The translations under genes were made by a program, and so were the position numbers. Below the pieces are notes generated by a model. The model was given only the letters and a program-made list of their open reading frames with translations. It was not told where the DNA came from and did not search any database. A DNA stretch of 64,000 bases from Escherichia coli (GTDB lineage Bacteria > Pseudomonadota > Gammaproteobacteria > Enterobacterales > Enterobacteriaceae), in assembly GCF_044647545.1 (NCBI RefSeq), contig NZ_CP172818.1; one strand, 5' to 3'. Positions 1 to 19,823 of the stretch are shown here, piece by piece (the stretch's first letter is position 1; each line of letters opens with the position of its first letter).

Positions 1-154
1 GGAGGATCATACTATGAATGCATTTTTGCGTTTTCTGGATGCAGATATCCAGAACAACCCGCAAAAAACTCGTCCATTCAACATTCAACAAGGAAAGAAA
101 CTTGTCGCTGGCATGGACGTCAACATTGATGATGAGATTGGCGACGACGAATAA
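1..154 (+). CDS. prlF: PrlF (SohA) antitoxin, 3' portion only (5' end lies outside the window)
   Basis: In-frame translation ends ...MNAFLRFLDADIQNNPQKTRPFNIQQGKKLVAGMDVNIDDEIGDDE, stop TAA at 152-154 overlapping the yhaV ATG by 1 nt; recognised as the PrlF C-terminus. Confidence 0.8.
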   Translation, partial: EDHTMNAFLRFLDADIQNNPQKTRPFNIQQGKKLVAGMDVNIDDEIGDDE

Positions 155-618
155 TGGATTTTCCACAAAGGGTTAATGGTTGGGCGCTATATGCTCATCC
201 CTGTTTTCAGGAAACCTACGACGCTTTAGTTGCCGAAGTCGAGACATTAAAGGGAAAAGATCCTGAAAATTATCAGAGAAAAGCCGCCACAAAGTTATTG
301 GCGGTAGTCCATAAAGTGATTGAGGAGCATATCACGGTCAATCCATCATCACCGGCATTCCGTCATGGCAAGTCGTTAGGCTCTGGGAAAAATAAAGACT
401 GGTCACGGGTAAAATTTGGTGCTGGTCGTTATCGTCTCTTCTTTCGTTACAGCGAAAAAGAGAAAGTCATCATTCTGGGATGGATGAACGATGAAAACAC
501 GCTGCGCACCTACGGTAAAAAAACAGATGCCTATACCGTATTCAGCAAAATGTTAAAAAGAGGACATCCTCCTGCCGACTGGGAAACCCTCACCCGAGAG
601 ACAGAAGAAACCCATTGA
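154..618 (+). CDS. yhaV: YhaV ribosome-dependent mRNA interferase toxin (PrlF-YhaV TA system)
   Basis: 154-aa ORF in track; sequence recognised as YhaV; immediately downstream of and overlapping prlF. Confidence 0.9.
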   Translation: MDFPQRVNGWALYAHPCFQETYDALVAEVETLKGKDPENYQRKAATKLLAVVHKVIEEHITVNPSSPAFRHGKSLGSGKNKDWSRVKFGAGRYRLFFRYSEKEKVIILGWMNDENTLRTYGKKTDAYTVFSKMLKRGHPPADWETLTRETEETH

Positions 619-672
619 TGGTATTCACAATGCCCGCCGAACGCATTCGTGTTGACCAGCGGGCACCCTTTC

Positions 673-1482
673 TCACTCCCCGACCAGAATCACTTCAACC
701 CCAGCCTTTCGCAGTCCTTCCAGACTATCCGCAGGAATGCCTTCATCAACAATGATCATGTCGATACGTTGAGTATCAATGATCTTATGTAAACTGGAAC
801 GGTTGAACTTACTGGAATCGGTGACCACGATGATCCGTTCCGCAACTTCGCACATCCGACGGTTTAAACGGGCTTCATCTTCATTATGCGTGCTGACGCC
901 GCGCTCCAGATCGATCGCATCTACACCAAGAAACAGCATATCGAAGTGGTAATTTTGCAGCGATTGCTCAGCCTGATCACCGTAAAAAGATTGCGACTGA
1001 CGGCGCAAATGCCCCCCGGTCATCAGCAGCTCAACGCCTTCCGCTTCCAGCAACGCATTAGCCACGTTCATACCGTTGGTCATCGCAATTACGTCGGTGT
1101 GCTTGCGCATCAGACGAGCAATCTCAAAAGTGGTGGTCCCGGAGTCGAGGATCACCCGATGACCAGGCTGAATCAACTCAACGGCAGCTTTCGCAACGCT
1201 GCGTTTCATTGCGGTGTTCAGCGCGCTTTTATCTTCCACTGATGGCTCGACTGACGGCGTCGTGCTATCGCAGATCAACGCGCCGCCATAGGCACGCACA
1301 GCGATCCCCTGCTTTTCCAGAAACGCCAGATCGTTGCGGATCGTCACAGTAGATACACCATACAACGCCGATAGATCATTAACTTGCACACTCCCTTGCT
1401 GGCGCAGGCGTTGAATGATCTGCTCTCGTCGCTCACTGGTGCCTGTCACTCGCTTCTCGCCTGAAGCGTCGGTATTACTCAT
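673..1482 (-). CDS. agaR: AgaR, DeoR-family transcriptional repressor of the aga cluster
   Basis: 269-aa ORF; N-terminal HTH plus DeoR sugar-binding domain; divergent from kbaZ. Confidence 0.92.
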
Positions 1483-1487
1483 AGTAA

Positions 1488-1700
1488 GTCCTTTCGTAAA
1501 ACTTTCGTTTCATTTCGTTTTGCCTATTAACGCCTTTCTATTAAGCAAATGCAAGCCCACCTTACCCATTGGCGCAAGCTACTCTCGTTTCAGTGGCTTT
1601 CATTATGTTTCTTTTGTGAATCAGATCAGAAAACTATTATCTTTCGTTTTATTTTTATCTCACCATGGCGCAGTATCAACTGAAACAAAACGAAAGATTA
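1488..1700. promoter_or_regulatory. agaR-kbaZ divergent promoter region with repeated TTTCRTTT/CTTTC motifs (putative AgaR operators)
   Basis: Multiple direct and inverted copies of ctttcgttt, tttcatttcgtttt, gaaacaaaacgaaag in a 250-bp AT-rich intergenic region; AgaR operators are known to be CTTTC-rich. Confidence 0.5.
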
Positions 1701-1730
1701 ATATCGCAGTAATCTGAACTGGAGAGGAAA

Positions 1731-3011
1731 GTGAAACATCTGACAGAAATGGTGAGACAGCACAAAGAGGGCAAAACAAATGGGATTTATGCCGTTTGTT
1801 CCGCACATCCGCTGGTGCTGGAAGCTGCAATCCGCTACGCCAGTGCAAACCAAACGCCGTTACTGATTGAAGCAACCTCCAATCAGGTGGACCAGTTCGG
1901 CGGTTATACCGGAATGACGCCCGCCGATTTTCGCGGCTTTGTTTGTCAGCTCGCCGACTCGTTGAATTTCCCACAGGATGCGTTGATTCTGGGTGGCGAC
2001 CATCTGGGGCCAAACCGCTGGCAAAACCTGCCTGCCGCTCAGGCAATGGCCAATGCCGATGATTTGATTAAAAGCTACGTGGCGGCAGGATTCAAAAAAA
2101 TTCACCTTGATTGCAGCATGTCCTGTCAGGACGATCCGATTCCCTTAACTGATGACATCGTGGCCGAACGCGCCGCTCGTCTGGCGAAAGTGGCGGAAGA
2201 AACCTGCCGTGAACATTTTGGCGCGGCCGATCTGGAGTATGTCATTGGTACCGAAGTACCGGTACCTGGCGGCGCGCATGAAACCTTAAGCGAGCTGGCG
2301 GTCACCACGCCGGATGCCGCCCGCGCCACACTGGAAGCCCATCGCCACGCCTTTGAAAAGCAGGGCCTGAATGCCATCTGGCCACGCATTATTGCCCTGG
2401 TGGTTCAACCCGGCGTCGAATTCGATCACACCAACGTTATTGATTATCAGCCAGCTAAAGCGACCGCATTAAGCCAGATGGTCGAAAACTACGAAACGCT
2501 GATTTTCGAAGCGCACTCTACCGATTACCAAACGCCGCAATCGTTGCGCCAGCTGGTGATTGACCACTTTGCCATTCTGAAAGTTGGCCCGGCGCTGACC
2601 TTCGCCCTGCGTGAAGCTCTGTTCTCTCTGGCGGCGATTGAAGAAGAACTGGTGCCAGCAAAAGCCTGTTCTGGTCTGCGTCAGGTGCTGGAAAACGTGA
2701 TGCTCGACCGCCCGGAATACTGGCAAAGCCACTACCACGGTGACGGCAACGCGCGTCGTCTGGCGCGTGGTTATAGCTACTCGGATCGCGTGCGCTATTA
2801 CTGGCCGGACAGCCAGATTGATGACGCTTTCGCTCATCTGGTTCGTAATCTGGCGGATTCACCAATTCCGCTACCGCTCATCAGCCAGTATTTGCCGCTG
2901 CAATACGTGAAAGTTCGCTCCGGCGAGCTGCAGCCAACACCACGGGAACTCATTATCAACCATATTCAGGACATCCTGGCGCAGTACCACACAGCCTGTG
3001 AAGGCCAATAA
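1731..3011 (+). CDS. kbaZ: KbaZ (AgaZ) tagatose-bisphosphate aldolase non-catalytic subunit
   Basis: 426-aa ORF beginning GTG at 1731; recognised sequence. Confidence 0.9.
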
Positions 3012-3033
3012 GCAAAACAAAGAGGAACACGCT

Positions 3034-3507
3034 ATGCCAAATATTGTTTTAAGCCGGATTGATGAGCGTTTGATTCACGGTCAGGTCGGCGTTCAGTGGG
3101 TCGGATTTGCGGGGGCAAATCTGGTGCTGGTAGCCAACGATGAGGTTGCCGAAGATCCGGTACAACAAAACCTGATGGAAATGGTACTGGCAGAAGGGAT
3201 CGCCGTACGTTTCTGGACGCTGCAAAAAGTCATCGACAACATTCATCGCGCCGCCGATCGACAGAAAATCCTGCTGGTTTGTAAAACACCTGCCGATTTC
3301 CTGACGCTGGTGAAAGGTGGCGTTCCGGTGAATCGCATTAACGTTGGCAATATGCACTACGCCAATGGCAAGCAACAAATCGCCAAAACGGTTTCTGTGG
3401 ATGCGGGTGATATCGCAGCATTTAACGACCTGAAAGCCGCTGGGGTGGAATGCTTCGTTCAGGGCGTCCCGACAGAGCCTGCTGTGGACCTCTTTAAATT
3501 ACTTTGA
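3034..3507 (+). CDS. agaV: AgaV, PTS N-acetylgalactosamine-specific EIIB component
   Basis: ATG at 3034 (MPNIVLSRIDERLIHGQVG...), 157 aa; the track ORF begins 12 codons upstream. Confidence 0.9.
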   Translation: MPNIVLSRIDERLIHGQVGVQWVGFAGANLVLVANDEVAEDPVQQNLMEMVLAEGIAVRFWTLQKVIDNIHRAADRQKILLVCKTPADFLTLVKGGVPVNRINVGNMHYANGKQQIAKTVSVDAGDIAAFNDLKAAGVECFVQGVPTEPAVDLFKLL

Positions 3508-3517
3508 GGGATTCATC

Positions 3518-3919
3518 ATGGAAATCAGTCTGTTGCAGGCATTCGCGTTGGGCATTATCGCCTTTATCGCTGGCCTGGATATGTTTAACGGCCTAACCCA
3601 TATGCACCGCCCGGTGGTCCTCGGCCCGTTGGTCGGGCTGGTACTTGGCGATCTGCATACCGGTATTTTAACCGGCGGTACGCTGGAACTGGTGTGGATG
3701 GGGCTGGCCCCGCTGGCGGGCGCACAGCCGCCTAACGTGATTATCGGTACTATCGTCGGCACGGCGTTTGCCATTACTACTGGCGTGAAACCCGATGTCG
3801 CGGTCGGTGTCGCCGTACCTTTCGCTGTCGCAGTACAGATGGGGATTACCTTCCTGTTCTCGGTGATGTCCGGCGTGATGTCCCGCGGCGACCTGGCAAC
3901 AAACCCGTGCCGCGTTTGA
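3518..3919 (+). pseudogene. agaW: agaW' fragment of PTS EIIC component (N-terminal part only)
   Basis: 133-aa ORF with IIC-like transmembrane N-terminus that terminates prematurely; matches the truncated agaW of K-12, where agaE/agaF are missing. Confidence 0.8.
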
Positions 3920-3938
3920 CGCTGGTGCCGACGGCCTG

Positions 3939-4442
3939 GTGCATTGCTATAACGGGATGACAGGTTTACATCACCGCGAACCGGGAATGGTTGGCGCGGG
4001 ATTAACGGACAAGCGCGCCTGGCTGGAACTGATAGCCGATGGTCATCATGTACATCCGGCGGCGATGTCGCTGTGTTGTTGCTGTGCGAAAGAGAGAATC
4101 GTGCTGATCACCGACGCGATGCAGGCAGCCGGGATGCCGGATGGTCGCTATACGTTATGTGGTGAAGAAGTGCAGATGCACGATGGCGTTGTCCGTACCG
4201 CGTCCGGTGGGCTGGCGGGCAGTACGCTGTCTGTCGATGCGGCAGTGCGCAACATGGTCGAGTTGACGGGCGTAACGCCTGCGGAAGCCATCCATATGGC
4301 ATCGCTGCATCCGGCGCGTATGCTGGGTGTTGATGGTGTTCTGGGATCGCTTAAACCGGGCAAACGCGCCAGCGTCGTTGCGCTGGATAGCGGGCTGCAT
4401 GTGCAACAAATCTGGATTCAGGGTCAATTAGCTTCGTTTTGA
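3939..4442 (+). pseudogene. agaA: agaA' fragment of N-acetylgalactosamine-6-phosphate deacetylase (C-terminal part only)
   Basis: 167-aa ORF corresponding to the C-terminal region of a NagA-like amidohydrolase; no N-terminal metal-binding region. Confidence 0.8.
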
Positions 4443-4518
4443 TGGTTTGCTCCTTTATTGGGCCTTCACTTCCCCCGTAAGGCCTTTCTTTTTCTTTCTT
4501 TTTGATCTGTGCAGCGGT

Positions 4519-4575
4519 GTCGGATGCGACGCTGACGCGTCTTCTTCGACCTACGGTACGCCGCATCCGGCAATC
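4519..4575. repeat. REP-like palindromic element
   Basis: gtcggatgcgacgctgacgcgtcttcttcgacctacggtacgccgcatccggca; reverse complement begins GCCGGATGCGGCGTA, typical of REP. Confidence 0.5.
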
Positions 4576-4599
4576 GGTGAACATAGCGACGTTATCACG

Positions 4600-4755
4600 C
4601 AATCCTTTAATCTTCCCTTGTCTTTTCTTTCAATGATCACAAATTTCGTTTTATTTCTTTTTTCTCCATTGAACTTTCAGTTTCTTTTCTATAGATTTTA
4701 ATCAACGAAAGACATCACCAAGTGAAATGAAACGAAAGGTAAGCGAAAGCGACAA
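4600..4755. promoter_or_regulatory. agaS promoter region with CTTTC/TTTCRTTT repeats (putative AgaR operators)
   Basis: Clustered motifs cttttctttc, tttcgttttatttc, tttcagtttcttttc, gaaatgaaacgaaag directly upstream of agaS. Confidence 0.5.
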
Positions 4756-4792
4756 CGCCCGACGCCAAGTTCATCAGACTAAGGATTGAGTT

Positions 4793-5947
4793 ATGCCAGA
4801 AAATTACACCCCTGCTGCCGCTGCAACCGGTACATGGACTGAAGAAGAGATCCGCCATCAGCCTCGCGCATGGATCCGTTCACTCACCAACATCGACGCG
4901 CTACGTTCCGCGCTCAATAACTTCCTTGAACCGTTACTGCGCAAAGAGAATCTGCGGGTAATCCTGACCGGAGCCGGAACCTCGGCATTTATCGGTGATA
5001 TCATCGCGCCGTGGCTCGCCAGCCATACCGGTAAAAACTTCAGCGCCGTACCGACCACCGATCTGGTCACTAATCCGATGGACTACCTGAATCCAGCTCA
5101 TCCGCTACTGTTGATCTCCTTCGGTCGATCCGGCAACAGCCCGGAAAGCGTCGCCGCCGTGGAACTGGCGAATCAGTTTGTACCGGAATGCTATCACCTG
5201 CCGATCACCTGCAACGAAGCGGGCGCTCTTTACCAAAACGCGATCAACAGCGACAACGCGTTTGCCCTGCTGATGCCCGCAGAAACGCACGATCGCGGCT
5301 TTGCGATGACCAGCAGCATTACCACCATGATGGCCAGCTGCCTCGCGGTTTTCGCACCTGAGACGATCAACAGCCAAACCTTCCGCGATGTGGCAGATCG
5401 TTGCCAGGAAATCCTGACCTCACTGGGCGATTTCAGCGAAGGTGTGTTTGGTTACGCACCGTGGAAACGGATCGTTTATCTCGGCAGCGGTGGCTTACAG
5501 GGCGCAGCACGCGAGTCGGCGCTGAAAGTACTGGAACTGACAGCGGGTAAACTGGCGGCCTTTTATGATTCCCCGACCGGATTCCGTCATGGCCCGAAAT
5601 CGCTGGTCGATAACGAAACGCTGGTGGTGGTGTTTGTCTCCAGCCACCCTTACACCCGTCAGTATGATCTTGATCTGCTGGCAGAACTCCGCCGCGATAA
5701 CCAGGCATTGCGCGTAATCGCCATCGCCGCGGAAAGCAACGACGTTATTACCGCCGGTCCACATATCATCCTGCCGCCGTCCCGTCACTTTATCGACGTT
5801 GAGCAGGCATTTTGCTTCCTGATGTACGCCCAGACGTTTGCACTGATGCAGTCGCTGCACATGGGTAATACGCCGGATACCCCATCAGCCAGTGGCACCG
5901 TTAACCGCGTGGTGCAAGGCGTAATCATTCATCCGTGGCAGGCATAA
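4793..5947 (+). CDS. agaS: AgaS, SIS-domain sugar isomerase/deaminase (putative galactosamine-6-phosphate deaminase)
   Basis: 384-aa ORF; recognised sequence. Confidence 0.92.
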   Translation: MPENYTPAAAATGTWTEEEIRHQPRAWIRSLTNIDALRSALNNFLEPLLRKENLRVILTGAGTSAFIGDIIAPWLASHTGKNFSAVPTTDLVTNPMDYLNPAHPLLLISFGRSGNSPESVAAVELANQFVPECYHLPITCNEAGALYQNAINSDNAFALLMPAETHDRGFAMTSSITTMMASCLAVFAPETINSQTFRDVADRCQEILTSLGDFSEGVFGYAPWKRIVYLGSGGLQGAARESALKVLELTAGKLAAFYDSPTGFRHGPKSLVDNETLVVVFVSSHPYTRQYDLDLLAELRRDNQALRVIAIAAESNDVITAGPHIILPPSRHFIDVEQAFCFLMYAQTFALMQSLHMGNTPDTPSASGTVNRVVQGVIIHPWQA

Positions 5948-6820
<873 letters not shown>

Positions 6821-6986
6821 TCATTAGTTTTTTATGATTTATCCCAATGTACTTCCCGATTAATATCGGGGAGTGCCTTAATGGAAAAGGAGATGACTAA
6901 ACCTTAATAAATACATAAGTACAATATCGCAACAATAATATATTTAAAAAAATTATATTATTCAACTTTATGGTGAGGATTACACA

Positions 6987-7463
6987 ATGAGCAGTCCAAA
7001 TATTCTCTTAACCCGTATTGATAACCGTCTGGTTCACGGTCAGGTTGGCGTGACCTGGACATCCACCATCGGTGCGAATCTGTTGGTAGTCGTGGATGAT
7101 GTTGTCGCTAACGATGATATTCAACAGAAATTAATGGGTATTACCGCAGAAACCTACGGCTTTGGCATTCGTTTCTTTACTATCGAAAAAACCATTAACG
7201 TCATCGGCAAAGCTGCACCGCATCAGAAGATCTTCCTGATTTGCCGTACGCCACAAACGGTACGTAAATTGGTAGAAGGTGGTATTGACCTGAAAGATGT
7301 CAACGTCGGCAATATGCATTTCTCGGAAGGGAAAAAGCAAATCAGCAGTAAAGTTTATGTCGATGACCAGGATCTCACGGACTTACATTTTATTAAACAA
7401 CGTGGCGTGAATGTTTTCATTCAGGACGTCCCTGGCGATCAAAAAGAACAAATCCCTGACTAA
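6987..7463 (+). CDS. agaB: AgaB, PTS galactosamine-specific EIIB component
   Basis: 158-aa ORF; paralogous to AgaV (RIDNRLVHGQVG motif). Confidence 0.92.
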   Translation: MSSPNILLTRIDNRLVHGQVGVTWTSTIGANLLVVVDDVVANDDIQQKLMGITAETYGFGIRFFTIEKTINVIGKAAPHQKIFLICRTPQTVRKLVEGGIDLKDVNVGNMHFSEGKKQISSKVYVDDQDLTDLHFIKQRGVNVFIQDVPGDQKEQIPD

Positions 7464-7501
7464 ATCTAAAATCGCCTTAATATTGGTTTGAGGTAATAAA
7501 A

Positions 7502-8305
7502 ATGCATGAAATAACCCTACTCCAGGGATTATCCCTGGCGGCGTTAGTTTTCTTTCTGGGGATTGATTTTTGGCTGGAAGCCTTATTTTTATTCCGCCCG
7601 ATAATCGTTTGTACCCTTACAGGTGCTATTCTCGGTGATATTCAGACTGGCTTAATTACCGGTGGCCTGACAGAGTTGGCTTTCGCCGGATTAACCCCTG
7701 CAGGTGGTGTTCAGCCGCCCAACCCTATTATGGCGGGTCTGATGACCACTGTCATTGCATGGTCTACGGGCGTTGATGCCAAAACGGCAATTGGTCTTGG
7801 CCTGCCGTTTAGTTTGTTAATGCAGTACGTCATTCTGTTCTTCTATTCCGCTTTCTCATTATTTATGACCAAAGCCGATAAATGCGCAAAAGAGGCGGAT
7901 ACGGCAGCATTTTCCCGACTTAACTGGACAACGATGCTCATCGTCGCTTCAGCGTATGCGGTGATTGCTTTCCTCTGTACTTACCTGGCACAAGGGGCGA
8001 TGCAGGCGCTGGTGAAAGCGATGCCCGCTTGGCTGACCCACGGCTTTGAAGTGGCTGGCGGTATTCTGCCTGCCGTTGGTTTTGGCTTGCTGCTGCGCGT
8101 GATGTTCAAAGCGCAATATATCCCTTACCTGATCGCCGGTTTCCTGTTCGTTTGCTACATCCAGGTCAGCAACCTGTTGCCGGTTGCCGTGCTGGGTGCA
8201 GGCTTTGCGGTGTATGAGTTTTTCAATGCGAAATCCCGGCAGCAAGCGCAACCGCAGTCCGTTGTCAGTAATAATGAAGAAGAGGACTACAGCAATGGGA
8301 TCTGA
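7502..8305 (+). CDS. agaC: AgaC, PTS galactosamine-specific EIIC component
   Basis: 267-aa hydrophobic ORF. Confidence 0.92.
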   Translation: MHEITLLQGLSLAALVFFLGIDFWLEALFLFRPIIVCTLTGAILGDIQTGLITGGLTELAFAGLTPAGGVQPPNPIMAGLMTTVIAWSTGVDAKTAIGLGLPFSLLMQYVILFFYSAFSLFMTKADKCAKEADTAAFSRLNWTTMLIVASAYAVIAFLCTYLAQGAMQALVKAMPAWLTHGFEVAGGILPAVGFGLLLRVMFKAQYIPYLIAGFLFVCYIQVSNLLPVAVLGAGFAVYEFFNAKSRQQAQPQSVVSNNEEEDYSNGI

Positions 8306-9086
8306 AATCAGTAAAAAAGATATCACCCGTCTGGGCTTTCGTTCGTCACTGCTGCAAGCGAGCTTTAACTACGAAAGGATGCAGGCGGGCGGTTTTACCT
8401 GGGCGATGTTGCCGATCCTGAAAAAGATTTATAAGGACGACAAACCGGGCCTAAGCGCGGCGATGAAAGATAACCTCGAATTTATTAATACCCACCCGAA
8501 TCTGGTCGGATTCCTGATGGGGTTATTAATTTCGATGGAAGAAAAAGGAGAAAACCGCGACACCATTAAAGGCCTCAAAGTGGCACTGTTTGGCCCAATC
8601 GCCGGGATTGGCGATGCGATTTTCTGGTTTACCTTATTGCCGATTATGGCGGGAATTTGCTCATCATTTGCCAGCCAGGGAAACTTGCTGGGGCCGATTC
8701 TATTTTTCGCCGTTTACCTGCTTATCTTCTTCCTGCGCGTCGGCTGGACCCACGTCGGTTATTCAGTCGGCGTGAAGGCTATTGATAAAGTGCGAGAGAA
8801 CTCGCAGATGATTGCTCGTTCGGCAACCATCCTCGGGATCACGGTAATCGGCGGGCTGATCGCTTCGTATGTGCATATTAACGTGGTGACATCGTTTGCC
8901 ATCGACAGTACCCACAGCGTCGCACTGCAGCAGGATTTCTTCGATAAAGTCTTCCCGAACATTTTACCGATGGCCTACACCCTGCTGATGTATTACTTCC
9001 TGCGGGTGAAAAAAGCGCATCCGGTGCTGTTAATCGGCGTGACTTTTGTGCTCTCTATTGTTTGTTCCGCATTCGGCATTTTGTAA
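8295..9086 (+). CDS. agaD: AgaD, PTS galactosamine-specific EIID component
   Basis: ATG at 8295 (MGSEISKKDITRLGF...), 263 aa, overlapping the agaC 3' end by 11 nt; the track ORF begins 37 codons upstream. Confidence 0.9.
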   Translation: MGSEISKKDITRLGFRSSLLQASFNYERMQAGGFTWAMLPILKKIYKDDKPGLSAAMKDNLEFINTHPNLVGFLMGLLISMEEKGENRDTIKGLKVALFGPIAGIGDAIFWFTLLPIMAGICSSFASQGNLLGPILFFAVYLLIFFLRVGWTHVGYSVGVKAIDKVRENSQMIARSATILGITVIGGLIASYVHINVVTSFAIDSTHSVALQQDFFDKVFPNILPMAYTLLMYYFLRVKKAHPVLLIGVTFVLSIVCSAFGIL

Positions 9087-9953
9087 ATGGAACGAGGCAC
9101 TGCGTCTGGCGGTGCCTCTTTACTTAAGGAATTTCATCCTGTGCAAACCCTTCAACAAGTTGAAAACTATACGGCGTTAAGTGAACGTGCCAGCGAATAT
9201 TTATTGGCCGTGATCCGTAGTAAACCGGATGCCGTGATTTGCCTGGCGACCGGAGCCACGCCATTACTGACGTATCATTATCTGGTAGAAAAAATCCACC
9301 AGCAGCAGGTTGATGTCAGCCAGCTCACCTTCGTGAAGCTCGACGAATGGGTGGATCTGCCATTAACAATGCCTGGCACCTGCGAAACTTTCCTACAACA
9401 GCATATCGTGCAGCCGCTGGGGCTGCGTGAAGACCAGCTCATCAGCTTTCGCTCTGAAGAGATAAATGAGACAGAGTGCGAACGGGTAACGAACCTGATT
9501 GCGCGCAAAGGCGGTCTGGATTTATGCGTTCTCGGATTGGGGAAAAACGGTCATCTTGGGCTGAACGAACCGGGAGAAAGCCTGCAACCGGCCTGCCATA
9601 TCAGTCAACTTGATGCCAGAACACAGCAACATGAGATGTTAAAAACCGCGGGCCGTCCCGTGACTCGTGGGATCACCTTAGGCCTGAAGGATATTCTCAA
9701 TACCCGCGAAGTTTTGCTACTGGTGACTGGCGAAGGAAAGCAGGATGCGACAGAACGTTTTCTCACGGCTAAAGTCTCTACCGCTATCCCGGCTTCTTGG
9801 GGCAACGCCCACACTCTCCCCCTGCTGCTCCAGTGCATACTTATACAGCGCATTTTTCTTCACGCCGTGAATTTCTGCTGCCAGCGCCGCCGCTTTTTTC
9901 AGTGGCAGTTCTGCCTGCAACAGCGCCAGCGTGCGCAGGGCATCGGCGGGTAA
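9087..9953 (+). CDS. agaI: AgaI-like galactosamine-6-phosphate isomerase/deaminase (NagB family) with altered 3' end: after about codon 238 the ORF is translation of antisense rsmI
   Basis: NagB-family ORF, ATG at 9087. Reference AgaI is recalled as 251 aa; here the frame stays open to 9953 (288 aa) and the tail ...[36 protein letters not shown]... is not NagB-like. Confidence 0.7.
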
Positions 9954-10676
9954 GTCTTCTTCCTGTGCTTTATGGCCTTCGACAATCAGTACCATTTCGC
10001 CTTTGCGACGGTTTTCATCTTCTTTGACCCACGCCAGCAGCTCGCCAACGGGCGCGCCGTGAATGGTTTCCCAGGTTTTGGTCAGCTCACGCGCCAGAAC
10101 GACGTAGCGGGATTCGCCTAATACCGCAACGATATCTTCCAGGCTATCTAACAGACGGTGGGTAGATTCATAAAAAATCAGCGTGCGCGGCTCCGCTTCA
10201 ATGGCTTTTAGCGCATCACGGCGGCCTTTTGATTTGGCAGGTAAAAAGCCTTCATAACAAAAACGATCGGATGGTAAACCCGCGGCGCTTAACGCAGTGA
10301 TAGCAGCACACGGCCCGGGTAGCGGCACCACGCGAATCCCCGCTTCACGGCAGGTACGCACCAGATGGTAGCCAGGATCGTTAATTAGCGGCGTTCCGGC
10401 ATCGGAAACCAGCGCAATGTTTTGCCCCTCTTGCAGCTTCGCCAGCAGCGTTTCGGCTTTTTGTTGTTCGTTATGGTCGTGCAGCGCAAACAACCGAGCA
10501 TTAATCCCAAAATGTTGCAGCAATAAACCGGTGTGACGCGTATCCTCGGCGGCAATCAGATCAACGGCCTGTAATACCTCCAACGCACGCTGGGTGATAT
10601 CCGCCAGATTGCCGATTGGCGTCGGTACAATGTAAAGCTGGCCCTGAGAATTATCCGCCGATTGGTGTTGTTTCAT
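9717..10676 (-). CDS. rsmI: RsmI 16S rRNA 2'-O-ribose C1402 methyltransferase, with a C-terminal read-through tail into antisense agaI
   Basis: 319-aa ORF versus a recalled 286 aa for RsmI; N-terminus [35 protein letters not shown]... recognised; the tail after ...KYALEQQGE is antisense of agaI. Confidence 0.8.
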
Positions 10677-10740
10677 TGTGTCGTCCGTATTGCCGATTTA
10701 ATATTGAGCATTGCGTAAAAAAAATATCACTGGATACATT

Positions 10741-12777
10741 ATGGTACCCTCAACATTTTCTCGTTTGAAAGCCGCGCGTTGTCTGCCTGTTGTTCTGGCA
10801 GCCCTGATTTTCGCCGGTTGTGGCACCCATACTCCCGATCAGTCCACTGCTTATATGCAGGGCACGGCGCAGGCTGATTCTGCCTTTTACCTGCAACAGA
10901 TGCAGCAAAGTTCTGATGATACCAGGATCAACTGGCAATTACTCGCCATTCGTGCACTGGTGAAAGAAGGTAAAACCGGACAGGCGGTGGAGTTGTTTAA
11001 CCAACTACCGCAAGAACTGAACGATTCTCAGCGTCGCGAGAAAACACTGCTGGCGGCAGAGATTAAACTGGCGCAGAAAGATTTTGCTGGCGCGCAAAAC
11101 TTGCTGGCGAAAATCACACCTGCAGATTTAGAACAAAACCAGCAAGCGCGTTACTGGCAGGCAAAAATCGATGCCAGCCAGGGGCGTCCTTCCATTGATT
11201 TACTGCGCGCGTTAATTGCTCAGGAACCGCTGCTCGGCGCGAAAGAAAAGCAGCAGAATATTGACGTCACCTGGCAGGCGCTCTCCTCCATGACTCAGGA
11301 ACAGGCGAATACGCTGGTGATCAATGCCGACGAAAATATTCTGCAAGGCTGGTTGGATCTGCAGCGCATCTGGTTTGATAACCGTAACGATCCCGACATG
11401 ATGAAAGCCGGGATCGCCGACTGGCAGAAACGTTATCCGAACAACCCGGGCGCGAAAATGCTGCCAACGCAGTTGGTTAACGTAAAAGCGTTTAAACCAG
11501 CATCGACCAACAAAATCGCCCTGCTGTTGCCACTGAATGGCCAGGCAGCGGTATTTGGTCGCACTATTCAGCAAGGCTTTGAAGCGGCGAAAAATATCGG
11601 CACTCAGCCAGTGGCGGCCCAGGTAGCTGCCGCACCTGCCGCAGACGTAGCAGAACAACCTCAGCCGCAAACCGTGGATGGCGTTGCCAGCCCGGCACAA
11701 GCCTCGGTTAGCGATCTGACCGGTGAACAACCTGCGGCCCAGCCGGTGCCTGTAAGCGCCCCGGTGGCAACCACCGCAGCGGTAAGCGCACCCGCGAATC
11801 CATCCGCAGAGCTGAAAATCTACGATACATCATCACAACCACTTAGCCAGATCCTCAACCAGGTTCAACAGGATGGTGCGAGTATTGTGGTCGGTCCGTT
11901 GCTGAAAAATAACGTTGAAGAGTTGCTGAAGAGCAACACTCCGCTGAACGTGCTGGCACTGAACCAGCCGGAGAATATCGAAAACCGCGTCAATATTTGT
12001 TACTTCGCGCTTTCACCGGAAGACGAAGCGCGCGATGCAGCGCGTCATATTCGTGACCAGGGTAAACAAGCGCCGCTGGTGCTGATCCCACGCAGTTCAT
12101 TGGGCGATCGCGTAGCCAATGCGTTTGCGCAAGAGTGGCAGAAACTGGGTGGCAGCACCGTTCTGCAACAAAAATTTGGTTCCACCAGCGAATTACGCGC
12201 GGGTGTTAACGGCGGTTCTGGTATTGCTTTAACGGGTAGCCCGATTACTCCCAGAGCGACAACCGACTCCGGCATGACGACCAACAATCCAACGCTGCAA
12301 ACCACGCCAACCGATGACCAGTTCACCAATAATGGCGGTCGTGTCGATGCGGTGTACATTGTGGCAACGCCGGGTGAAATCGCTTTTATCAAACCAATGA
12401 TCGCCATGCGTAACGGTAGCCAGAGCGGTGCAACGCTGTACGCCAGCTCCCGCAGTGCGCAAGGGACCGCGGGCCCGGATTTCCGCCTGGAGATGGAAGG
12501 CTTGCAGTACAGCGAAATCCCGATGCTGGCAGGCGGTAATCTGCCGTTAATGCAGCAGGCGCTCAGCGCGGTGAACAACGATTATTCGCTGGCTCGCATG
12601 TATGCGATGGGCGTCGATGCCTGGTCGTTGGCAAATCATTTCTCACAAATGCGCCAGGTTCAGGGTTTTGAAATCAACGGTAATACCGGAAGTCTGACGG
12701 CTAACCCGGATTGCGTAATTAACAGGAAGTTATCATGGCTACAGTACCAACAAGGTCAGGTAGTCCCCGCCAGTTAA
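10741..12777 (+). CDS. lpoA: LpoA outer-membrane lipoprotein activator of PBP1A
   Basis: ATG at 10741 ([27 protein letters not shown] lipoprotein signal), 678 aa; the track ORF begins 10 codons upstream. Confidence 0.9.
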
Positions 12778-13130
12778 CCACTAAACAGACCGGCGATGCG
12801 TGGGAAGCACAAGCGCGTCGCTGGCTGGAGAGCAAAGGACTGCGGTTTGTCGCCGCTAACGTGAACGAGCGTGGCGGCGAGATCGATCTGATAATGCGTG
12901 AAGGCCGGACCACCGTTTTTGTCGAGGTGCGTTACCGCCGCTCTGCGCTTTATGGCGGCGCGGCAGCCAGTGTGACCCGCAGCAAACAACACAAATTATT
13001 ACAGACTGCCCGCTTGTGGCTCGCGCGTCATAATGGGAGTTTTGATACTGTGGATTGCCGGTTCGATGTGGTAGCCTTCACCGGGAATGAGGTTGAGTGG
13101 ATTAAGGATGCCTTTAATGACCACTCATAA
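12735..13130 (+). CDS. yraN: YraN, UPF0102 family protein (putative endonuclease-like)
   Basis: 131-aa ORF overlapping the lpoA 3' end. Confidence 0.85.
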
Positions 13131-13149
13131 TTAAGGTTTAAGGATTAGC

Positions 13150-13740
13150 GTGCAAGAAAGAATTAAAGCTTGCTTCACTGAAAGCATTCAAACTCAAATT
13201 GCGGCGGCAGAGGCGCTTCCGGATGCCATCTCGCGTGCAGCTATGACGCTGGTTCAGTCTCTGCTCAATGGCAACAAAATCCTCTGTTGTGGTAATGGAA
13301 CTTCCGCTGCCAATGCACAGCATTTTGCTGCCAGCATGATCAACCGTTTCGAAACGGAGCGGCCCAGCTTACCTGCCATTGCACTAAATACTGATAATGT
13401 TGTCTTAACGGCAATTGCCAACGATCGCTTACATGATGAAGTGTATGCAAAACAGGTGCGGGCGCTGGGTCATGCGGGAGATGTATTGTTAGCCATTTCC
13501 ACCCGTGGCAACAGCCGCGATATTGTAAAAGCGGTAGAAGCTGCCGTTACGCGTGATATGACCATTGTGGCATTAACCGGCTATGACGGCGGTGAACTTG
13601 CAGGTTTGTTAGGGCCACAGGATGTGGAGATCCGCATTCCTTCGCATCGTAGTGCTCGCATTCAGGAGATGCATATGCTGACGGTAAATTGCCTGTGCGA
13701 TCTGATCGATAACACGCTTTTCCCTCACCAGGATGTTTAA
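13150..13740 (+). CDS. diaA: DiaA DnaA initiator-associating protein (SIS domain)
   Basis: 196-aa ORF, GTG start. Confidence 0.9.
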
Positions 13741-13749
13741 GGAGAATAC

Positions 13750-14325
13750 ATGAAGGCATTATCGCCAATCGCAGTCCTTATTTCCGCGCTGCTGTTGCAA
13801 GGTTGTGTTGCCGCTGCCGTAGTGGGTACTGCTGCTGTGGGTACCAAAGCCGCAACTGACCCACGCAGTGTCGGCACCCAGGTGGACGATGGTACCCTGG
13901 AAGTGCGCGTGAACAGCGCATTGTCGAAAGACGAACAAATTAAGAAAGAAGCGCGCATTAATGTAACGGCCTATCAGGGCAAAGTGCTGCTAGTTGGGCA
14001 GTCACCAAACGCTGAACTTTCGGCTCGCGCTAAACAAATTGCGATGGGCGTAGACGGTGCCAACGAAGTGTATAACGAGATTCGTCAGGGCCAGCCGATT
14101 GGTCTGGGCGAAGCGTCTAACGATACGTGGATCACCACCAAAGTGCGTTCGCAGCTCTTAACCAGCGATCTGGTGAAATCGTCCAACGTGAAAGTGACCA
14201 CCGAAAACGGTGAAGTGTTCCTGATGGGGCTGGTGACTGAACGTGAAGCGAAAGCGGCGGCAGATATTGCCAGCCGGGTAAGCGGCGTGAAGCGGGTAAC
14301 CACGGCGTTTACGTTTATTAAATAA
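13750..14325 (+). CDS. dolP: DolP (YraP) dual-BON-domain outer-membrane lipoprotein
   Basis: 191-aa ORF with lipoprotein signal LLLQGC. Confidence 0.9.
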   Translation: MKALSPIAVLISALLLQGCVAAAVVGTAAVGTKAATDPRSVGTQVDDGTLEVRVNSALSKDEQIKKEARINVTAYQGKVLLVGQSPNAELSARAKQIAMGVDGANEVYNEIRQGQPIGLGEASNDTWITTKVRSQLLTSDLVKSSNVKVTTENGEVFLMGLVTEREAKAAADIASRVSGVKRVTTAFTFIK

Positions 14326-14440
14326 GCCATTGATCGGTCGTTGAAGTAAATATTCACACCTTAGCCGACCTGTTCCCCTCACCCTAACCCTCCCCAAACC
14401 GAAAGGGGACAGATCAGGCTGTATTCAGGAGCATCCAACA

Positions 14441-15481
14441 TCAGGCCAACAGCGCCAACCCGCCGACAATCACACCAGACACTGCCACCATCGCCCCTGT
14501 CAGCCATAAGGCTTTCGCCGGGAACGCTTTGCGCAGCATAATCAGTGACGGCAAACTCACCGCCGGGAGCGTCATCAACAATGCCAGCGCCGGAGCGGTT
14601 CCCATGCCTGCCAGCATCATCGTTTGTACAATCGGAATTTCTGCTGCCGTGGGAATGACAAACAAGCATCCTGCCACCGCCATCGCCACCACCCACATCA
14701 GGCTGTTATCGACAGCACCATCGGCATGGGGGAATAACCAGACGCGAGCGGCACCCAACACCAGTACTGCAAGGATGTAAACCGGGATCGTACTCCAGAA
14801 AAGCGTCCATAGCGCCCTGCCCCAGCGGCTAAAAAATCCTCCCTGTGCTTCCGGTATGTCAATTTCGACCGGTGCCTGCGTTTGCGGTGTTTCACGCACC
14901 CATTTTTGCACCAGCGTCGCAATCAGCAACACCATCACCAGCCCCGCCACCAGACGAATCGCGGCAAAGCCCCAGCCAAGGACAAATCCCATGAATACCA
15001 GCGTCGCCGGGTTTAACAACGGATTCCCCATCCAGAATGCCAGCGCGCCCCCCATCGATACCTGTTGACGCCGCATTCCCGCCGCGACCGGAGCCGCACA
15101 GCAGGTACACATCATGCCCGGCAGCGAAAACAGCGTTCCCAGCAGCGTGCCGCGAAAGCGCGATTGCCCAAGCGTACGCAATAACCAGTCACGCGGGATC
15201 AGCACCTGAATCAACGACCCGAGCAGTACGCCCAGCACCGCCGCTTTCCATACCGCGAGGAAATAGATCATCGCGTAATCCAACGCCGCCTGCCACGGAT
15301 TAGCATCCGCCTGCGCAAGGATAGATTTACCGATACTGTGGGTTTCGGCAGCAGTAAACGCTTTGCCGTAGTAAGGTTGCCATTTCACATACCAGAGACC
15401 AGCAATGACAACGAGAAAGAAAAGCGCGGGTTTCCACCACTGAATGGGCGTTGCCGCCTGAGATGAAGACTGACCAGTCAT
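14441..15481 (-). CDS. yraQ: YraQ putative permease
   Basis: 346-aa hydrophobic ORF. Confidence 0.88.
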   Translation of the reverse strand: MTGQSSSQAATPIQWWKPALFFLVVIAGLWYVKWQPYYGKAFTAAETHSIGKSILAQADANPWQAALDYAMIYFLAVWKAAVLGVLLGSLIQVLIPRDWLLRTLGQSRFRGTLLGTLFSLPGMMCTCCAAPVAAGMRRQQVSMGGALAFWMGNPLLNPATLVFMGFVLGWGFAAIRLVAGLVMVLLIATLVQKWVRETPQTQAPVEIDIPEAQGGFFSRWGRALWTLFWSTIPVYILAVLVLGAARVWLFPHADGAVDNSLMWVVAMAVAGCLFVIPTAAEIPIVQTMMLAGMGTAPALALLMTLPAVSLPSLIMLRKAFPAKALWLTGAMVAVSGVIVGGLALLA

Positions 15482-18101: not shown

Positions 18102-18619
18102 GGTTCACCTACCGATGTCTGTTTGGTTTCAGGCGCGGTTTTCATTCCCGCCTCAACAAAATCCGCCAGTTGCAGCAGCATCATGCGTAAGGCTTTCGGC
18201 ATTTGCTCCAGTTCAATGGCGTCCATCAGGTTTTTCACATACAGCCCCAGCTCCGTATCGCCTTCAATTACCAGCCGACGCTGGAAGAAGAGCGTATCCG
18301 GATCTTGTTTACGCGCCGCAATCATCAGCAGATCGCTGGCGTCGGCACTAAAACTCACATCAGCTTGCGCGTTCTGGCTAACGACCAGTTTGCCATTCAC
18401 CACCGAGGTAAACCATTGCAGGTCAATATCACGCACATGAATACTTAACCAGCGGCCTTCAAGAAACTCCAGCTCGCCATCATCCAACGCCTGGCGGAAT
18501 TGCCAGCTTAAGACCTGCTCAAGAACCTGGCGTTTTAGCGCAAATGGCGTCAGTTTTACCGGTACACTCAACAGAGATGGCCCCAAATGCACAATACGGG
18601 AACGCAGTTTATCCAACAC
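18095..18619 (-). CDS. ubiT: UbiT (YhbT), SCP2-domain protein of O2-independent ubiquinone biosynthesis
   Basis: 174 aa from GTG at 18619; the track ORF begins 8 codons upstream. Confidence 0.85.
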   Translation of the reverse strand: MLDKLRSRIVHLGPSLLSVPVKLTPFALKRQVLEQVLSWQFRQALDDGELEFLEGRWLSIHVRDIDLQWFTSVVNGKLVVSQNAQADVSFSADASDLLMIAARKQDPDTLFFQRRLVIEGDTELGLYVKNLMDAIELEQMPKALRMMLLQLADFVEAGMKTAPETKQTSVGEPC

Positions 18620-18827
18620 GAGTTTTACTCCCTGTTTCAACAATCATCCTATTTTGCCATATCAGAAAAATAACATAGCGGTATAAATCAACAATTCCAT
18701 ATGAAATTGCTGCTACCACCAATACAACTTTAACTGCCTTAAATCAAAAATTGTCGCAGCAAGGTTAACTAAAATCCCAGTTCGTTAACATTTTTGCGCT
18801 TTGATAGCGCAACCTTCAGGAAAAATT

Positions 18828-19823
18828 ATGGAGCTGCTCTGCCCTGCCGGAAATCTCCCGGCGCTTAAGGCGGCCATCGAAAACGGCGCAGATGCTGTTT
18901 ATATCGGGCTAAAAGATGATACCAATGCCCGTCACTTCGCCGGCCTTAACTTTACCGAGAAAAAATTGCAGGAAGCGGTGAGTTTTGTCCATCAACATCG
19001 CCGCAAACTTCACATCGCGATTAACACTTTTGCGCATCCGGACGGTTACGCCCGCTGGCAGCGCGCCGTGGATATGGCGGCGCAGCTGGGTGCCGACGCG
19101 CTGATCCTCGCCGACCTCGCCATGCTGGAGTACGCCGCCGAGCGTTACCCGCATATTGAGCGTCATGTGTCAGTGCAGGCTTCGGCGACCAATGAAGAGG
19201 CGATTAACTTTTATCATCGCCATTTTGACGTTGCCCGCGTGGTGCTGCCGCGCGTGTTGTCGATTCATCAGGTGAAACAACTGGCACGGGTCACACCTAT
19301 CCCGCTGGAAGTGTTTGCTTTCGGCAGCCTGTGCATTATGTCGGAAGGCCGTTGCTATCTGTCGTCGTATCTGACGGGTGAGTCGCCCAACACTGTGGGT
19401 GCGTGTTCTCCGGCCCGTTTCGTGCGCTGGCAACAAACGCCGCAGGGGCTGGAATCCCGCCTGAACGAAGTGCTGATCGACCGTTATCAGGACGGCGAAA
19501 ACGCAGGTTATCCGACGCTGTGTAAAGGGCGTTATCTGGTGGACGGCGAGCGCTATCACGCGCTGGAAGAACCCACCAGTCTCAATACCCTGGAACTGCT
19601 GCCGGAGTTAATGGCAGCGAATATTGCTTCGGTGAAAATTGAAGGCCGCCAGCGTAGCCCGGCGTATGTCAGCCAGGTGGCGAAAGTCTGGCGTCAGGCT
19701 ATCGACCGTTGTAAGGCCGATCCGCAAAACTTCGTACCGCAAAGCGCGTGGATGGAGACGCTCGGGTCGATGTCCGAAGGCACGCAGACCACCCTTGGCG
19801 CGTATCACCGTAAATGGCAGTGA
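18828..19823 (+). CDS. ubiU: UbiU (YhbU), U32 peptidase-family protein of anaerobic ubiquinone biosynthesis
   Basis: ATG at 18828 (MELLCPAGNLPALKAAIENGADAVYIGL), 331 aa. Confidence 0.9.
   Translation: MELLCPAGNLPALKAAIENGADAVYIGLKDDTNARHFAGLNFTEKKLQEAVSFVHQHRRKLHIAINTFAHPDGYARWQRAVDMAAQLGADALILADLAMLEYAAERYPHIERHVSVQASATNEEAINFYHRHFDVARVVLPRVLSIHQVKQLARVTPIPLEVFAFGSLCIMSEGRCYLSSYLTGESPNTVGACSPARFVRWQQTPQGLESRLNEVLIDRYQDGENAGYPTLCKGRYLVDGERYHALEEPTSLNTLELLPELMAANIASVKIEGRQRSPAYVSQVAKVWRQAIDRCKADPQNFVPQSAWMETLGSMSEGTQTTLGAYHRKWQ

Follow-up and report, generated by a model that had tools for sequence, protein, structure and literature searches.

A candidate conserved RNA stem-loop in the leader of the FNR-activated ubiUV mRNA of Escherichia coli and its relatives

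INTRODUCTION

Small stable hairpins in 5' untranslated regions (UTRs), known as ompA-type 5' stem-loops or as obstacles to RNase E scanning, stabilise the mRNAs that carry them, and classical 5'-terminal protector hairpins lie within about 0 to 4 nt of the 5' end. A leader stem-loop also governs the ubiUVT operon of Pseudomonas aeruginosa, where, according to Cao et al. 2023 (Nature, PMC10247376), it occludes the ribosome-binding site and is opened by the Anr-induced small RNA (sRNA) SicX. That paper (PMC10247376) presents the mechanism as proven by 37 point mutations together with compensatory changes, and describes a search for sicX orthologues across Pseudomonas and other organisms.

The ubiUV genes encode ubiquinone hydroxylases that work without oxygen and are important in gut colonisation and in the shift from anaerobic to aerobic conditions. 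Current descriptions make the control of these genes in E. coli purely transcriptional, through FNR bound at a site named F1. Anaerobic production of UbiV is lost when F1 is mutated (Arias-Cartin et al. 2023, PMC10470549), and the ubiUV start site lies 36 nt downstream of F1 according to dRNA-seq cited by the same authors (Arias-Cartin et al. 2023, mBio, PMC10470549). The literature found on the regulation of E. coli ubiUV makes no mention of a hairpin. A structurally conserved leader hairpin would point to an extra layer of control, acting on mRNA stability or translation, and Pseudomonas has such a layer in another form (SicX).

Here, a palindrome in the ubiUV leader of an E. coli strain is analysed. 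It lies in a stretch of 64,000 nt of contig NZ_CP172818.1 (RefSeq assembly GCF_044647545.1), hereafter called the window. The window comes from a non-K-12 E. coli, and its positions 18600 to 18900 are 100% identical to strain 7/2 and others. The window keeps the register of MG1655 only from about 14.5 to 21.8 kb, and indels shift the coordinates elsewhere (1 to 14500 and 21800 to 46000).

RESULTS AND DISCUSSION

Position of the palindrome in the ubiUV leader

The original prediction described a perfect inverted repeat, TTGCGC-N7-GCGCAA (TTGCGCTTTGATAGCGCAA), 16 to 34 nt upstream of ubiU in the ubiT-ubiU divergent region and immediately before the ribosome-binding site. Each of these particulars is correct for this E. 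coli DNA. The repeat occupies exactly 18794 to 18812, with arms at 18794 to 18799 and 18807 to 18812 and a spacer of 7 nt, it lies between ubiT and ubiU, the ATG of ubiU is at 18828, and the AGGA of the ribosome-binding site (18818 to 18821) lies 5 nt downstream of the stem. The published ubiUV start, placed on the window, falls at about 18783/18784 and gives a leader of 44 nt. A start site downstream of the palindrome had been named as the observation that would speak against a regulatory role; the mapped start (about 18784) lies upstream of it, so the palindrome is transcribed. In its RNA form a seventh pair, U-A at 18800/18806, is added and the loop shrinks to 5 nt. The features of the region are as follows.

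18619, minus strand: ATG of ubiT, divergent from ubiU
18678 to 18691, minus strand: FNR site F2 (TTGATTTATACCGC), which serves ubiTp2 and is separate from the hairpin element
18734 to 18747, minus strand: FNR site F1 (TTGATTTAAGGCAG), the required activator site of ubiUVp
18770 to 18775, plus strand: putative -10 hexamer TAAAAT of the ubiUV promoter, assigned from its position 7 to 8 nt upstream of the start
18784 to 18793, plus strand: ubiUV transcript start and unpaired 5' tail (GUUAACAUUU), with TAAC invariant in 55 sequences
18794 to 18812, plus strand: stem-loop of the ubiUV leader, about +11 to +29, stem 18794 to 18800 with 18806 to 18812, loop 18801 to 18805 (UUGAU)
18799, plus strand: polymorphic base of the 5' arm, C here (perfect palindrome) and T in K-12 and most E. 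coli
18818 to 18821, plus strand: Shine-Dalgarno AGGA of ubiU, nearly invariant and predicted to be unpaired
18828 to 19823, plus strand: ubiU coding sequence

Taken alone, the palindrome is unremarkable and is no more than chance would supply. Perfect 6-bp inverted repeats with a spacer of 3 to 10 nt occur 179 times in the window, versus about 119 times in shuffles, and the TTGCGC-N7-GCGCAA motif itself is not enriched there (7 matches with at most 2 mismatches, 8 expected). The segment from -45 to -12 of ubiU ranks 8th in foldability among 45 neighbouring MG1655 genes. One explanation is therefore neutral: the palindrome would be a GC-rich inverted repeat, arisen by chance or inherited, in a short leader segment under no constraint, with no function of its own, and thus an ordinary leader palindrome. 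In favour of this explanation, chance alone should supply such a repeat in an intergenic region of this length, at least one being present in 58% of shuffled 210-nt intergenic regions, and in the sliding-window background 10% of all 34-nt windows are equally stable (-9.7 kcal/mol or better). We consider it unlikely on the whole but weighty enough to be carried through the comparisons below. A TTG at 18801, in the hairpin loop and in frame with ubiU, would add MIAQPSGKI to the protein; the loop is not conserved and this is probably chance.

Two alleles of the palindrome in E. coli

The perfect palindrome of the window is the minority form in E. coli, present in 653 of about 5,350 complete genomes. 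The TTGCGT...GCGCAA allele is found in 4,694 complete genomes (about 87%), K-12 MG1655 included. The substitution responsible, C to T at 18799, replaces a C-G pair of the RNA with a U·G wobble and introduces a mismatch into the symmetry of the DNA. E. albertii and the cryptic Escherichia species have C at this position, so the perfect repeat is probably ancestral. The differences within Escherichia are confined to the loop or produce a G·U wobble.

The hairpin of the window allele is predicted to have a folding energy of -9.7 kcal/mol (z = -3.0 against dinucleotide shuffles), and that of the K-12 allele -7.3 kcal/mol (z = -2.5). In a context of 104 nt, the minimum-energy fold of the K-12 allele does not contain the hairpin. 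K-12, the strain used in the experimental literature, thus carries the weaker U·G allele, and the minority strains carry C-G; together they make a natural allele pair.

FNR sites and the ubiUV promoter

The FNR consensus is TTGAT-N4-ATCAA. The original prediction had called for a scan with FNR, ArcA and NarL matrices; scans of 18620 to 18830 with consensus sequences for these three (7-2-7 for NarL) and for CRP gave nothing at the palindrome, and only F1 and F2 stood out. These two are the best FNR consensus matches in 18620 to 18830, at 7 of 10 positions each (3 mismatches), and they lie 47 and 103 bp upstream of the palindrome, respectively. The FNR ChIP peak that Myers et al. 2013 reported (at 3,299,421, version-2 coordinates) falls after conversion on the centre of F1, the offset of about 1,978 between version-2 and version-3 coordinates having been checked against this peak. 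FNR at F1 fully explains the transcriptional oxygen control of ubiUV, and the leader hairpin is not needed for it.

The TTGAT in the loop had been likened to an FNR half-site with a poor second half, and this description is apt, since TTGATAGCGCAACC (18801 to 18814) matches 5 of 10 positions and is not conserved. An FNR site in the palindrome was rejected. It would be centred at about +24 (spanning about +18 to +31), and the ChIP peak falls on F1 instead; in addition, the loop TTGAT occurs only in Escherichia, whereas F1 (CTGCCTYAAATCAA) is kept in nearly all of the Enterobacteriaceae loci shown. A sigma-70-like match of 9 out of 12 positions, with TTGATA of the loop as its -35 element, was likewise dismissed as a probable chance match because the loop is not conserved. 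A search with Rfam 15 (E <= 10) found no family at 18794 to 18812 and gave two sub-threshold hits elsewhere in the intergenic region.

In the -10 hexamer, T, A, A, A and the last T do not vary among 55 sequences. A direct repeat with its copies 20 bp apart, GGTTAAC (18763 to 18769) and CGTTAAC (18783 to 18789), is also present at the promoter, the first copy abutting the -10 hexamer and the second covering +1 to +6. Its GGTT and TAAC do not vary among 55 Enterobacteriaceae, and the conserved stretch continues without a break over the start site. The repeat is not a canonical ArcA box (at least 5 mismatches). From its sequence, it could be a repressor or activator site, or could reflect a constraint on the promoter and the initial transcribed sequence.

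Comparison of ubiU leaders among Enterobacterales

The ubiU loci of 80 Enterobacteriaceae species and of 11 more distant Enterobacterales were compared. F1, the -10 hexamer, the start-site bases (CCCAGTTCGTTAACAATTTT) and the Shine-Dalgarno sequence are nearly invariant in Enterobacteriaceae. The first 12 or so transcribed bases are conserved in the 80 species, and the sequence of the palindrome varies. In most of the 80 species, and in nearly every genus, a different GC-rich hairpin occupies the same place, with the following arms.

Escherichia: UUGCGC/GCGCAA
Citrobacter: UGCGCC/GGCGCA
Klebsiella: GCGUCCC/GGGCCGC
Enterobacter: CGAUC/GAUCG
Pluralibacter: GCGGCCC/GGGUCGC
Salmonella: UUGCGUC/GACGUAA
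Silvania: UUUACCGCCC/GGGCGGUAAA

Across the genera, the loop measures 3 to 7 nt and the distance from GCG to CGC is 7 to 12 bp. In the E. coli palindrome, the two U-A pairs on the outside are lineage specific.

The original prediction left two options for the palindrome, a regulator operator or an RNA hairpin. The hairpin option is supported, at moderate strength as far as the comparative data go, by a transcribed element whose shape is kept in most Enterobacteriaceae, and the operator option fares badly. As an operator, the palindrome would bind some dimeric factor at +11 to +29 and so block or modulate transcription from ubiUVp. The dyad symmetry is perfect in this strain, the place just 3' of the start site is typical for repressors, the outermost GCG...CGC is fairly conserved, and a YbcM ChIP-exo signal has been published for the ubiT-ubiUV region. 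However, the arms vary by genus (GCGC, GCGCC, GCGTCCC, CGATC, GTGCCC, ACCGCCC and others), and the variable loop length and the GCG-to-CGC distance argue against a rigid dimeric operator. The allele of about 87% of E. coli genomes, K-12 too, is asymmetric (TTGCGT), and the changes keep RNA pairing by G·U, which is meaningless in duplex DNA. Furthermore, the palindrome has no FNR, ArcA, NarL or CRP consensus match, its motif is not enriched in the window, and the YbcM peak is about 235 bp off, within ubiT. An operator at this place is therefore a very doubtful explanation. As for YbcM, its strongest ChIP-exo peak (Gao et al. 2021; S/N 470; 3299238-3299252 in version-2 coordinates) converts to about 18559 to 18573, which is within the ubiT coding region on the minus strand and not intergenic as the text of Gao et al. 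2021 implies.

The hairpin is not universal. It is absent from three Pseudocitrobacter species (L036, L046 and L055), which have leaders of 32 nt, and is half-deleted in Enterobacter chuandaensis and one Lelliottia strain (L035 and L059), which have leaders of 38 nt. Since it is lost or half-deleted there, the hairpin is dispensable in these five, and the losses count in favour of a repeat without function. These hairpin-less and half-deleted leaders could serve as natural controls for function.

The leaders of the more distant Enterobacterales are longer and non-homologous, and by eye most of them have a GC hairpin that ends 5 to 9 nt before the Shine-Dalgarno sequence. Such recurrence in non-homologous leaders goes against the neutral explanation, and as judged from the sequences it fits a function linked to the ribosome-binding site. 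Expanded leaders of 64 to 73 nt are seen in Phytobacter, Kosakonia, Buttiauxella and relatives (L043, L047, L051, L061, L065, L070, L073, L079 and L080), in which two tandem GC-rich hairpins replace the single one.

Folding and covariation of the leader hairpin

In 16 genera, the hairpin always starts 10 to 14 nt after the start site, with z values from -0.6 to -3.9 against dinucleotide shuffles. For the leader segment of 79 distinct orthologues, the mean z is -1.93, and z is below -1.5 in 73% of them. Four control segments of the same loci gave mean z values from +0.21 to -0.87 and so have no comparable excess of foldability, which a functionless repeat would not explain.

A drift simulation was performed in which each observed sequence was taken as the ancestor and the observed number of differences was placed randomly. 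The simulated sequences had a mean minimum free energy (MFE) of -4.1 kcal/mol, versus -9.2 kcal/mol in real orthologue pairs with differences at about 14 of some 30 positions. The median share of runs that matched the real stability was 5%. Under neutrality, drift should thus have destroyed the hairpin.

The covariation statistics are more divided. On a plain MAFFT alignment, 75% of the cells of a nine-pair structure are paired, versus 68% in shuffled alignments (reached in 0 of 500) and 31 to 51% when the partner is slid, and the covariation score is 0.273 versus 0.184. Two phylogeny-robust covariation measures are not significant on this alignment (358/500 and 272/500), for which RNAalifold gives a weak consensus of -0.49 kcal/mol and 4 pairs. 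On an alignment refitted with a covariance model, 77% of the cells are paired versus 69%, further pair types number 24 versus 20.6 (14/500), and the phylogeny-robust measures are only marginal (40/500 and 14/500). The paired percentage and the covariation score lie above all 500 shuffles and above every slid control.

Different Watson-Crick pairs occupy identical stem positions in several genera, which is hard to reconcile with a segment free of constraint; at stem position 4, the pair is C-G, A-U, U-A, G-C, G·U or U·G depending on the genus. Parsimony on the ubiU tree assigns to the five core pairs 18 pair-keeping events (5 of them double) versus 13 pair-breaking events (9 of them later restored). 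Over all nine pairs, 35 pair-breaking versus 33 pair-keeping events are inferred. The many pair-breaking events and the weakness of the phylogeny-robust measures remain points for the neutral explanation. Overall, structural selection on the leader hairpin is likely, not proven, as far as comparative sequence analysis goes.

Predicted accessibility of the ribosome-binding site

In E. coli, the Shine-Dalgarno sequence has a predicted unpaired probability of 0.83, and only 1% of 73 enterobacterial leaders have a value below 0.3. Disruption of either arm in silico changes the predicted accessibility of the Shine-Dalgarno sequence and the AUG only slightly, and this insensitivity to the hairpin is a further point for a repeat without function. 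When the whole hairpin is deleted in silico, the accessibility of the Shine-Dalgarno sequence drops from 0.70 to 0.26, solely through a new UUUCC/GGAAA pairing. The idea that the hairpin insulates the ribosome-binding site was set aside on these predictions, which are not decisive. According to these folding predictions, the hairpin does not sequester the ribosome-binding site.

Proposed role of the hairpin

Since it is the pairing that is kept, not the sequence, and wobble pairs are tolerated, the element most likely functions at the RNA level. The palindrome would be the DNA image of an RNA stem-loop of 6 to 7 bp with a loop of 5 to 7 nt, placed at about +11 to +29 of the 44-nt leader of the FNR-activated ubiUV mRNA, with a conserved unpaired 5' tail (GUUAACAUUU) before it and the Shine-Dalgarno sequence after it. 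We infer that the hairpin acts on the mRNA and not on the DNA. Its most plausible role would be that of a barrier that slows 5'-end-dependent decay, for example by RNase E scanning from the free 5' tail. Alternatively or in addition, the hairpin may set the translation efficiency or the landing-site geometry at the adjacent open ribosome-binding site. That the palindrome is a conserved RNA stem-loop of the ubiUV leader with such a role in mRNA decay or translation is a reading to which we would give about even chances.

Early termination is another way in which a leader hairpin might act. In this case, the hairpin would be an attenuator or pause hairpin at which RNA polymerase terminates or pauses early in the leader, as a GC-rich stem early in the transcript might suggest. 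AUUUUUC directly after the stem in Klebsiella and Raoultella and a terminator-like hairpin in the Budvicia leader also point in this direction. However, the E. coli hairpin is followed by AACCUUCAGG, without a U-tract, and for this reason is not a terminator. Most genera also have no U-tract there, and a terminator scan finds none in 18550 to 18900 and none at the Klebsiella hairpin. An attenuator in E. coli is thus highly improbable. The two lineages deserve a description of their own. The hairpin of Klebsiella and Raoultella (L009-L013, L015, L018, L022, L031, L034 and L039; about 1466 to 1490), GCGUCCC...GGGCCGC with one internal mismatch, is followed by A/GUUUUUC and has a terminator-like look, on which a simple scan made no call; judging by this sequence, it may be a lineage-specific attenuator. 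The ubiU leader of Budvicia (L091, 647 to 690) has a 15-pair hairpin followed by CUCUUUUG, which the scan scored as terminator-like.

The leader might also respond to an sRNA or an RNA-binding protein, with the stem-loop and the unpaired U-rich 5' tail forming a docking or pairing module that tunes ubiUV translation or decay. Stem-loop control of ubiUVT is proven in P. aeruginosa (PMC10247376), conservation is far higher in the 5' tail (GUUAACAAUUUU) than in the stem, and HqbA (YhbS), which modulates RNA binding by Hfq, is encoded in the divergent operon. However, the Shine-Dalgarno sequence is already predicted to be open, so no unmasking is needed, and the conservation of the tail extends without interruption across the start site to the promoter, which points to a constraint on the DNA. 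The pairing of the FNR-induced sRNA FnrS with the leader is not better than its pairing with shuffled leaders, and no literature was found that ties an sRNA to enterobacterial ubiUV. A leader responsive in this way is improbable. FnrS was rejected as an analogue of SicX on the basis of its duplex energy against shuffled leaders (p of about 0.11), and it was the sole sRNA compared.

By analogy, the stem-loop and the invariant 5' tail might be the enterobacterial counterpart of the SicX-controlled leader, operating through an sRNA, Hfq/HqbA or an RNase, and this too is a long shot. Were it true, a second, hitherto unrecognised layer would set the amount of UbiUV after FNR has turned transcription on, and the layer would apply to anaerobic ubiquinone synthesis in E. 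coli and its relatives.

Comparison with known systems

The preferred reading, a conserved stem-loop acting on the ubiUV mRNA, can be compared with three described systems. The first is the pair of FNR sites F1 and F2 (PMC10470549), which share the intergenic region with the palindrome, whose loop has the FNR half-site TTGAT. Unlike the palindrome, F1 and F2 match the consensus at 7 of 10 positions, lie about 40 to 43 bp upstream of the starts of their promoters, are conserved and are experimentally required (PMC10470549). The palindrome matches at 5 of 10 positions, lies downstream of the start site, and has a TTGAT that is Escherichia specific.

The second is the group of ompA-type stabilisers. 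Like them, the ubiUV element would be a small, stable, structurally conserved stem-loop, independent of sequence, that lies near the 5' end and ahead of an accessible ribosome-binding site. Unlike them, it is preceded by about 10 unpaired nt, which is too long for classical 5'-end protection, so the leader hairpin is not a classical 5'-terminal protector. From the comparison of sequences, it is probably an example of a conserved 5' UTR stem-loop.

The third is the ubiUVT leader of P. aeruginosa. Both leaders precede genes of one family that serve one pathway, anaerobic ubiquinone synthesis, and both combine an FNR- or Anr-activated promoter with a stem-loop in a short leader. They differ in that the E. 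coli stem ends 5 nt before a Shine-Dalgarno sequence that is predicted to be open, the E. coli leader is unrelated in sequence and has no known sRNA partner, and the E. coli operon is split, with ubiT divergently transcribed. By analogy of gene, promoter and leader, the P. aeruginosa ubiUVT leader is the closest precedent for the E. coli hairpin.
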